Source of the DNA: Escherichia coli
GTDB taxonomy: Bacteria > Pseudomonadota > Gammaproteobacteria > Enterobacterales > Enterobacteriaceae
Assembly (NCBI RefSeq): GCF_003334405.1
Contig: NZ_QOWM01000025.1
Direction: 5' to 3' (one strand)
Length of the DNA: 39,980 bases
The notes under the pieces are model-generated. The model ran no database searches and was not told where the DNA came from. It was given only the letters and a program-made list of their open reading frames with translations. The position numbers and the translations under genes were made by a program. How positions within the stretch are numbered: the first letter of the stretch is position 1; each line of letters starts with the position of its first letter. Positions 14,421 to 25,877 of this stretch are shown piece by piece.

Positions 14421-14846
14421 TTATTTCAGGCGCTTACCCGCTTCATCAACCACTTTCTCGCCATCTTCCTTGGAGAATGCGCCTTTTTGCGCATCTGGCA
14501 GAATTTCCAGCACCACTTCTGAAGGGCGGCACAGGCGAGTTCCCAGCGGCGTCACCACAATCGGGCGATTAATCAGAATCGGGTGCTGAAGCATAAAGTC
14601 GATTAACCGATCGTCAGTAAATTTATCTTCCGCAAGGCCCAGCTCCTCATACGGTTCGACGTTTTTACGCAGCAGCGCGCGTACGGAAATCCCCATATCG
14701 GCAATGAGTTTGACCAGTTCATCGCGCGTTGGCGGAGTTTCCAGATAATGGATAATGGTCGGTTCTGTGCCGCTGTTGCGGATCATCTCCAGCGTATTAC
14801 GCGACGTGCCGCAGGCCGGGTTGTGATAAATGGTAATGTTGCTCAT
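14421..14846 (-). CDS. arsC: Arsenate reductase, glutaredoxin-coupled (141 aa)
   Basis: 141-aa ORF MSNITIYHNPACGTSRNTLEMIRN… with the catalytic Cys in the HNPACGTSR motif. Confidence 0.92.
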   Translation of the reverse strand: MSNITIYHNPACGTSRNTLEMIRNSGTEPTIIHYLETPPTRDELVKLIADMGISVRALLRKNVEPYEELGLAEDKFTDDRLIDFMLQHPILINRPIVVTPLGTRLCRPSEVVLEILPDAQKGAFSKEDGEKVVDEAGKRLK

Positions 14847-14858
14847 ATCAGTATCTCA

Positions 14859-16148
14859 TTACAAAGTGAAAGAGAGACGTAGCGCCAGCGCAGCCAGCGT
14901 CACAAACAGCACAGGCAGGGTCATGATAATCCCTGTACGGAAGTAATATCCCCAGCTGATAGTCATATTCTTCTGCGAAAGTACGTGCAGCCAGAGTAGC
15001 GTAGCCAGGCTACCAATTGGGGTAATTTTCGGTCCCAAATCGCAGCCAATCACATTGGCATAAACCATCGCTTCTTTGATAACGCCAGATGCCGTGCTGC
15101 CATCAATGGACAACGCGCCAACCAGTACCGTCGGCATATTGTTCATAATAGAAGAGAGGAAGGCGGTGAGGAATCCGGTGCCGAGCGTCGCGGCCCACAG
15201 GCCGTTATCCGCCAGCACGTTGAGTACGCCAGAAAGATATTCCGTTAATCCGGCATTGCGCAGGCCATAAACCACCAGATACATGCCGAGCGAGAAGATG
15301 ACAATCTGCCAGGGGGCACCGCGCAGGACTTTACCCGTATTAATCGCATGACCGCGTTTAGCGACGACAAATAATATCAGCGCGCCCACAGCTGCAATGG
15401 CGCTCACCGGAATGCCGAGCGGTTCCAGGACGAAAAATCCCACCAGCAGAAGCAGTAAAACAACCCAGCCAGTTTTGAACGTAGCAGGATCTTTGATCGC
15501 TTCTGCGGGAGATTTCAGCAGCGCCATATCGTAGTTCTGCGGAATATCTTTGCGAAAATAGAGATGTAACATCACCAGCGTGGCAACAATCGCGGCGATA
15601 TCCACCGGCACCATCACCGAGGCGTATTCGCGAAAGCCGAGGCCAAAGAAATCAGCGGAAACGATATTCACCAGGTTGGAGACAATAAGCGGCAGGCTGG
15701 CGGTATCGGCAATGAATCCGGCCGCCATCACGAACGCCAGCGTAGTGCCTTTACTGAACCCTAAAGCCAGCAGCATGGCGATGACAATCGGTGTCAAAAT
15801 AAGCGCCGCGCCATCATTGGCAAACAGGGCGGCAACGGCAGCACCGAGCAGGACAATCCAGGTAAACAGCAAGCGACCACGACCATTACCCCAGCGTGAG
15901 ACGTGCAGCGCCGCCCATTCAAAAAAGCCGGACTCATCCAGCAGCAGGCTGATGATAATGACGGCGATAAACGCAGCCGTCGCGTTCCAGACGATATTCC
16001 ACACCACCGGAATATCACCCGGATGGACCACGCCCGTAACTAACGCCAGTACTGCGCCGAGCGTTGCACTCCAGCCGATGCCTAAACCTTTCGGCTGCTA
16101 GATAACCAATACGATGGTCAGGACAAAGATAGCGCCTGCCAGTAACAT
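14859..16148 (-). pseudogene. arsB: Arsenite efflux pump ArsB interrupted by an in-frame amber codon at codon 17 (TAG at 16098-16100); remaining frame intact for 412 codons
   Basis: Minus strand from ATG (16148-16146) reads [51 protein letters not shown]… and continues in frame to the stop at 14859; total 429 codons as for full-length ArsB. The ORF track reports only the 390-aa remainder from GTG at 16031. Confidence 0.7.
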
Positions 16149-16201
16149 AATGCCTCCCGGATAAAACACATCTGAAAATTCATATGTGTTTAGCTAAATT
16201 T

Positions 16202-16555
16202 TTAACTGCAAATGTTCTTACTGTCCCCGGAACAGTTTTGTCGAGCCAGGTTGCGGACAATCGCCTGAACCTTTTCCTGTTCACATCGCCAGGCCTCATC
16301 AATAATTTTCGCCGCCCATGCTGGAATATGCGGTGATAAGCGGTAATGAACCCACTTACCTTGCTTGCGGTCCAGCAATAGCCCGCTTTCACGCAGCAAT
16401 GCCAGGTGGCGGGAGATCTTGGGCTGCGACTGGTCGAGAGCAGTGCAGAGATCGCAGACGCATAACTCTCCCAGTTCGCTGAGCAGTAAAACGATGCCCA
16501 GACGGGTTTCATCAGCAAGAATTTTGAACAATTGGATGGGTAACAGAAATGACAT
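16202..16555 (-). CDS. arsR: Arsenic-responsive ArsR/SmtB-family repressor (117 aa)
   Basis: 117-aa ORF with the metalloid-binding ELCVCDLC motif and winged HTH. Confidence 0.92.
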   Translation of the reverse strand: MSFLLPIQLFKILADETRLGIVLLLSELGELCVCDLCTALDQSQPKISRHLALLRESGLLLDRKQGKWVHYRLSPHIPAWAAKIIDEAWRCEQEKVQAIVRNLARQNCSGDSKNICS

Positions 16556-16625: not shown

Positions 16626-16707
16626 CGAATGTGTAAGTGCAGAGGAAGGTAATAGGTGTGAATTTTGAGTTGGCTATTCATTTGAAAGGAGGTCTGAATC
16701 AGGACGT

Positions 16708-16789
16708 AAAAAAACCGACTTTGCGTCGGTTTTTTACTTTCCAGCCCTGAGTTGGTGGCTCTGGCTGGAGTGAGAGAGTTCTTATCTAA
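16708..16789 (-). ncRNA. agrB: AgrB antisense sRNA (repeat copy 1; ends in hairpin ccgacgcaaagtcgg + U-run on the minus strand)
   Basis: About 85-nt unit directly repeated at 16936-17020 (about 90% identity); contains a segment complementary to the dinQ 5' region (copy at 17188-17220); intrinsic terminator at the low-coordinate end. Confidence 0.55.
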
Positions 16790-16935: not shown

Positions 16936-17020
16936 TGTAAAAAAACCGACTTTGCGTCGGTTTTTTACTTTCCAGCCCTGAGTTGGTGGCTCTGACTGGA
17001 GTGAGATAGCCATCATCTAA
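16936..17020 (-). ncRNA. agrA: AgrA antisense sRNA (repeat copy 2)
   Basis: Second copy of the about 85-nt unit with the same terminator hairpin (16942-16966); the dinQ-complementary segment is diverged from copy 1 (ctctgactggagtgagatagccatcatctaac). Confidence 0.55.
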
Positions 17021-25776: not shown

Positions 25777-25877
25777 GCCTGATGCGCTACGCTTATCAGG
25801 CCTACATAATCTCTGCAATCTATTGAATTTGCATGTTTTTGTAGGCCGGATAAGGCGTTCACGCCGCATCCGGCATG
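25777..25877. repeat. REP/BIME element pair between uspB and pitA (gcctgatgcgctacgcttatcaggcctac … gtaggccggataaggcgttcacgccgcatccggc)
   Basis: Canonical REP consensus; flanked by two related hairpins (25729-25757 and 25903-25930) that can act as terminators for uspB and pitA. Confidence 0.7.

Follow-up and report, generated by a model that had tools for sequence, protein, structure and literature searches.

A recent amber codon at position 17 very probably makes chromosomal arsB a pseudogene in a small Escherichia coli clone

The window, by which we mean the whole 39,980-nt stretch of DNA that was analysed, carries the gene order gadX-gadW-mdtFE-gadE-hdeDAB-yhiD-dctR-slp-yhiS-arsCBR-dinQ-gorA ... 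rbbA-yhhJ of the E. coli chromosome. The window sequence and its list of open reading frames (ORFs) place arsB on the minus strand, with an ATG at 16148 and a TAA stop at 14859-14861. Codons 1-16 encode MLLAGAIFVLTIVLVI, codon 17 is TAG (plus-strand CTA, 16098-16100), and the frame then continues unchanged for 412 codons that begin QPKGLGIGW... and end at the TAA. The in-frame amber codon that an earlier note on this DNA had described is thus read directly from the sequence. The base that follows the TAG is C, giving the context UAG-C. The longest unbroken arsB ORF encodes 390 aa from a GTG at 16031 (codon 40) and is the sole arsB entry in the ORF list. The features of the arsRBC stretch are the following.

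16202..16555, minus strand: arsR, intact As(III)-responsive repressor, 117 aa (NF007528), upstream of the lesion
16153..16158, minus strand: native arsB Shine-Dalgarno (SD) sequence GGGAGG, anti-SD duplex -10.3 kcal/mol
14859..16148, minus strand: arsB, very probably a pseudogene, 429 sense-codon positions with a stop at codon 17
16101..16148, minus strand: leftover 16-codon ORF encoding MLLAGAIFVLTIVLVI, which covers most of TM1
16098..16100, minus strand: amber codon TAG at arsB codon 17, from TGG (Trp17) via plus-strand 16099 C>T
14859..16031, minus strand: 390-aa ORF whose GTG (codon 40) is the first canonical in-frame start past the stop
14421..14846, minus strand: arsC, intact glutaredoxin-dependent arsenate reductase, 141 aa (NF007456)

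The arsRBC operon of E. coli K-12 (ArsB, ARSB_ECOLI, WP_000922639.1) has the same arsR-arsB-arsC order and the same neighbours, with dinQ/agrAB and gorA on one side and the yhiS-slp-gad island on the other. The 429 sense-codon positions of the arsB frame match ARSB_ECOLI residue for residue (428/429 positions identical) except at codon 17, which is TAG instead of TGG in the window; because the remaining frame agrees throughout, the TAG cannot be put down to chance in some random ORF. The flanking genes, which the earlier note had judged intact, both score above curated NCBIfam cut-offs, ArsR with 233 bits on NF007528 (cut-off 97) and ArsC with 305 bits on NF007456 (cut-off 242). The window is identical to contig QOWM01000025.1 of assembly GCA_003334405.1, whose annotation (locus L020) records no protein between arsR and arsC, as would fit if the annotators took arsB for a pseudogene. 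On the opposite strand, 16099 C>T makes the palindrome CTAG (16098-16101), and the plus strand thereby gains a TAG at 16099-16101 that terminates a spurious antisense ORF at 15580-16101.

When codon 17 is repaired, the 429-aa ArsB scores 730 bits on NF011980 (cut-off 457) with a match over profile positions 2-428 of 430; its TIGR00935 score is 729 bits (cut-off 415). By score, the locus belongs to the ArsB arsenite/antimonite:H+ antiporter family (NF011980 / TIGR00935; PF02040), and the ars operon context is present, with arsR upstream and arsC downstream of arsB. The 390-aa ORF retains 665 bits on NF011980 and 664 bits on TIGR00935 and begins at profile position 42 of 430. With the stop at codon 17, no unbroken ORF spans the whole ArsB profile including TM1-TM2, and we therefore regard the locus as an arsB pseudogene rather than a functional family member. 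The residues N111, D112, D148, N337, D370, K374 and S380, which are involved in metalloid binding or proton coupling (PMC13381914), are all retained in frame downstream of the stop.

Tryptophan at position 17, which the earlier note had given for full-length ArsB, is present in the common E. coli allele, in 120/120 close homologs (>=88% identity), none of which starts later than residue 1, and in the L. ferriphilum ArsB structure 10tp, whose N-terminus aligns from residue 1. Of 69 distant full-length representatives (30-60% identity), 24 have W at position 17 and the others another hydrophobic residue, so strict family-wide conservation of W17 is only partly true, the residue being invariant in the close ArsBs. 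P19 is found in 63 of these 69 and a TM1-(R/Q/K)-P-TM2 block throughout; this block is the element that is conserved. The earlier note had named orthologs that naturally start downstream of this position as evidence that would speak against its reading. Such orthologs are ruled out by the profile match from position 2, by the 120 homologs and by the diverse representatives, of which 64/69 start within the first 5 residues, a single one begins beyond residue 17 and none begins as late as residue 40. From hydropathy, TM1 spans about residues 1-17 and TM2 about residues 24-41. In the 2026 cryo-EM work, ArsB is an elevator-type protein with 10 TMs and two hairpins in an inverted repeat, and TM1-3 and TM6-8 form the scaffold domain (PMC13381914). 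The L. ferriphilum ArsB structures (PDB 10tp/10tq/10tu/10ua) come from a protein with 75% identity to EcArsB (PMC13381914) and serve here as a structural reference only; residues 1-39 (TM1, TM2) lie in the scaffold domain, and a truncated product would lack them.

IAL7250, the complete genome nearest to the window, has 4 mismatches to it across 39,980 bases, 16099 C>T among them. The three coding differences are all non-synonymous. Each line gives the base in IAL7250 followed by the base in the window.

1421 G>T: GadY sRNA, nucleotide +1
4280 C>A: MdtF R530L
12901 T>C: YhiS-like T298A
16099 C>T: ArsB W17*

Across the 2-kb arsRBC stretch, position 16099 is the sole difference from relatives, T in the window and C elsewhere, which changes TGG to TAG and bears out the single G-to-A nonsense change that had been proposed. 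A 61-nt probe centred on the site found the T allele in 0 of 5,426 complete RefSeq E. coli genomes; 4,310 of the genomes matched the probe, all in the 95-99% identity band and none exactly. A wide spread of the amber allele was suggested by at least 40 genomes listed at '100.0%', but these really match at 2000/2001 positions, with the mismatch at 16099. Exact-sequence look-ups found the variants to be nested, with YhiS A298 on 42 contigs and MdtF L530 on about 9. The YhiS A298 (12901C) relatives examined (L016-L018) have an intact arsB of 429 aa, and the amber is present in at least two deposited assemblies of the MdtF L530 sub-clone, GCA_003334405.1 and GCA_024592625.1 (L010/L019). The amber codon is a derived state nested inside a lineage with intact arsB, and it is a real and very recent mutation in a small clone. 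A Dcm/VSP hotspot was considered as the source of the mutation and discarded, since the ancestral CCAGA, as we read it, falls short of the full CCWGG.

GTG40 is the only canonical restart codon, with no better canonical start nearby. It sits 66 nt past the stop and has no Shine-Dalgarno sequence, its anti-SD duplex energy being -2.5 kcal/mol versus -10.3 kcal/mol for the native ATG1. ATC is a rare start codon and a poor initiator. Efficient restart was rejected for GTG40 and also for the SD-like ATC24 (-5.5 kcal/mol) and ATC52 (-6.4 kcal/mol), which are only modest. The restart at GTG 16031 suggested in the earlier note is therefore correct in its coordinate but not in its consequence, which was put as the loss of TM1 only: given the hydropathy boundaries, the GTG40 product would lack both TM1 and TM2. 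UAG followed by C is a comparatively weak, leaky termination context in E. coli, and near-cognate read-through at UAG-C could leave a trace of full-length ArsB. The earlier note had also raised an amber suppressor such as supE; the source here is the draft assembly of a natural isolate. No tRNA gene and no Rfam recoding element was found in the 39,980-nt window, and the stop lacks the conservation looked for as a sign of programmed read-through, being present in 0/5,426 complete genomes, with W in every close homolog. The 412-codon frame after the stop has not decayed further; a very recent event would explain this, and so would residual selection acting on the frame.

The arsC gene starts 12 nt downstream of the arsB stop and its own SD is weak (-2.7 kcal/mol). 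Nonsense polarity and translational coupling are both established behaviours. With arsC so close and so weakly provided with an SD of its own, ArsC output may be lowered through nonsense polarity or lost translational coupling. The earlier expectation that the cell keeps arsenate reduction and regulation therefore stands in so far as arsC and arsR are intact, but reduction itself is less certain given the weak arsC SD and the possible polarity. At the arsB-arsC junction, no special RNA structure that would sequester the arsC start was found beyond shuffled controls (z = 0.51). A terminator-like hairpin inside arsB (15942-15927) was rejected as a polarity site, 1 such site being present versus 2.4 expected by chance. 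A crude composition scan, run with no control and only suggestive, pointed to C-rich rut-like stretches in the untranslated arsB mRNA.

Alleles of this kind are found elsewhere in E. coli. The 390-aa product that gene callers emit for them (P0016) is present on at least 25 contigs, and at least nine distinct lesions in codons 15-39 lie behind this call in public assemblies.

W17 TAG: the window clone (L010) and L007
W17 TGA: L009
1-bp deletion in codon 17: L008
W26 TGA: L004
W26 TAG: L006
L22 TAA: L011
1-bp insertion: L012
13-bp deletion: L005
13-bp duplication: L013

The same TAG in L007 lies on a haplotype that is ~3% diverged in the flanks, has a second ArsR gene plus an additional arsP-like permease next to arsC, and bears the two arsB SNPs typical of it. 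Because its TAG sits on a diverged haplotype with its own arsB SNPs, the W17 TAG most likely arose twice, as judged from these sequences. There are 13 possible single-base routes to a stop in arsB codons 2-39, and 4 of the 5 distinct nonsense lesions seen are G-to-A transitions at two Trp codons, a dominance that fits what mutation pressure predicts. As a neutrality control, the equivalent shortened products of nine neighbouring genes were counted, a comparison in which alternative start calls and clonal sampling are confounders.

gorA, prlC, rlmJ, yhiI: shortened product on 1-3 contigs
arsB: shortened product on 25 contigs
yhiN, yhiS, dtpB, rsmJ, yhiM: shortened product on 43-175 contigs

In this confounded control arsB is mid-range, and it provides no evidence for selection. 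Intact ArsB is found on at least 1,000 contigs. Among the 5,426 complete E. coli genomes arsB is detectable in 4,378 and has no match in 1,048 (19%). In Nissle 1917 it is reduced to a 49-nt remnant, in strain ST18 it is interrupted by IS1 (IS1A), and in strain 2014C-3051 it is partially deleted. In E. coli, arsB is thus a dispensable accessory gene whose repeated loss has taken many routes.

Three alternatives to the inactivation of arsB by a tolerated recent mutation were weighed against these data. The earlier note had itself raised the doubt that the T at 16099 is a base-call error, in which case the true base would be C and arsB intact. The source is a draft assembly contig, the difference is one base only and the allele is missing from all 5,426 complete RefSeq genomes, which are points in favour of a sequencing or assembly error. 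However, GCA_024592625.1, an independent assembly of the same clone that differs elsewhere (one agr repeat copy versus two), also has T, and the amber is therefore not a base-call error. An unrelated read set, SRR8385432 (L007), has the TAG too, position 16099 lies outside any homopolymer, and the remaining three private SNPs of the clone are likewise found in several assemblies. We consider an error extremely unlikely. A working pump might still be made from a genuine amber allele, either by read-through or suppression of the UAG (by an amber suppressor or a near-cognate tRNA) or by re-initiation at GTG40 to give a 390-aa transporter. The wholly undecayed frame after the stop, with all known metalloid-binding and proton-coupling residues, speaks for this, as does the 665-bit score of the 390-aa ORF on the ArsB model, and the joint loss of TM1 and TM2 would preserve the orientation of the other helices in the membrane. 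Against read-through, the stop is conserved nowhere (0/5,426 complete genomes; W in 120/120 homologs) and the window holds no tRNA gene. Against re-initiation, GTG40, 66 nt beyond the stop, lacks an SD (-2.5 kcal/mol), TM1-3 are components of the scaffold domain as well as the inverted repeat (PMC13381914), and among the 69 diverse representatives a single one starts after residue 17 and none as late as residue 40. Moreover, an undecayed frame is expected for so recent a mutation (4 SNPs per 40 kb versus the nearest genome). A pump that still works is, on this evidence, very improbable.

The remaining alternative takes the loss as real and asks about its cause: E. coli could be losing arsB through adaptive, convergent selection and not through neutral decay. 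This would account for at least nine distinct lesions in codons 15-39 on at least 25 contigs, for W17 TAG on two haplotypes, for the 19% of complete genomes that lack arsB and for the greater rarity of shortened gorA, prlC, rlmJ and yhiI products (1-3 contigs). But the nonsense lesions are mostly (4/5) the most mutable of the 13 routes, in line with mutation pressure; shortened yhiN, yhiS, dtpB, rsmJ and yhiM products equal or exceed those of arsB (43-175 contigs); and intact ArsB remains on at least 1,000 contigs. By a rough estimate of our own, the number of hits is also about the neutral expectation given the hundreds of thousands of E. coli sequenced. Adaptive loss is likewise very improbable. 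If true, it could mean that ArsB is costly in arsenic-free host niches and that its loss is selected and not merely tolerated.

We conclude that a recent, clone-specific nonsense mutation has, with high probability, made the chromosomal arsB of this clone a pseudogene. The stop replaces a codon that is a sense codon in intact orthologs, it is derived, and it is real in the DNA, which together are the marks of a nonsense pseudogene. The claim that the arsenite pump is probably inactivated is supported by direct comparison, in the form of an amber codon at W17 in an otherwise intact frame; ArsB function is probably lost, to judge by where the stop lies, how weak the restart site is and what TM1-2 contribute to the structure. 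The proposed course of events begins with the G:C-to-A:T transition that converted TGG to TAG at Trp17 of the arsenite/antimonite:H+ antiporter gene. Ribosomes that load at the strong native start would terminate after 16 residues and make little or no full-length ArsB, and the only product expected from the native SD-driven start is the 16-residue peptide MLLAGAIFVLTIVLVI. A GTG40 product, deprived of the scaffold helices TM1 and TM2, would probably be neither efficiently made nor functional. The upstream arsR is unaffected, while arsC, itself intact, is perhaps under-expressed owing to Rho-dependent polarity or to the loss of translational coupling. The clone would be expected to show heightened sensitivity to arsenite, antimonite and arsenate.

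AW3110 is a laboratory ars deletion strain from which the whole operon is gone (Carlin et al., cited in PMC13381914). With EcArsB alone the strain regains As(III) resistance, which makes ArsB the key resistance determinant (PMC13381914), and because of this, sensitisation to arsenite is expected on ArsB loss. Like AW3110, the window clone would be devoid of ArsB function; unlike AW3110, it retains arsR and arsC, so that arsenate could become the more toxic arsenite with no dedicated exit. Other natural arsB-null states of E. coli (the N-terminal lesions, ST18, 2014C-3051 and Nissle 1917) likewise yield no full-length ArsB. Compared with these, the window lesion is one base substitution in an otherwise pristine operon, and it is confined to a small clone that is also marked by MdtF R530L and GadY +1 C>A. 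A literature search for an arsB W17 amber or an E. coli arsB pseudogene found no relevant description. The case is an ordinary strain-specific pseudogenisation of the well-known arsRBC operon, a familiar process, and its significance is mainly for strain annotation. Compared with typical arsRBC-positive E. coli, isolates of the clone are predicted to show greater sensitivity to arsenite, antimonite and arsenate, and gene-presence screens for metal resistance would wrongly score the clone as arsB-positive.

Several minor observations concern the surroundings of the locus and the clone. In many E. coli haplotypes the stretch between arsC and the yhiS-like gene holds a pair of genes, an ArsR/SmtB regulator and an ArsP_1 permease, that the window lacks; in L001, L004, L006-L009 and L011-L013, an extra divergent ArsR/SmtB regulator and an ArsP_1-type permease (PF03773) lie directly downstream of arsC. 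Rfam matches on the minus strand include the ES205 sRNA (105 bits, 7200-7271) and ES036/CssrF (42 bits, 25798-25838), both unrelated to arsB. Between arsR and dinQ there are two antisense RNA genes of the AgrB family (16706-16789 and 16937-17020, minus strand), and the agrA/agrB repeats of 117 nt are about 88% identical. GCA_024592625.1 has a single agr copy, with overlapping alignment blocks and a locus ~230 nt shorter, which reflects either a genuine deletion through recombination between the repeats or a collapsed assembly. The change at 4280 in mdtF (2755-5868, minus strand) gives R530L in an RND efflux permease and is common to the about 9 public contigs mentioned above. In the GadY sRNA (1308-1421, minus strand), the private SNP 1421 G>T (C>A on the RNA strand) falls on model position 1, the first nucleotide, and might affect the transcription start or the stability of the 5' end, and hence acid-resistance regulation.
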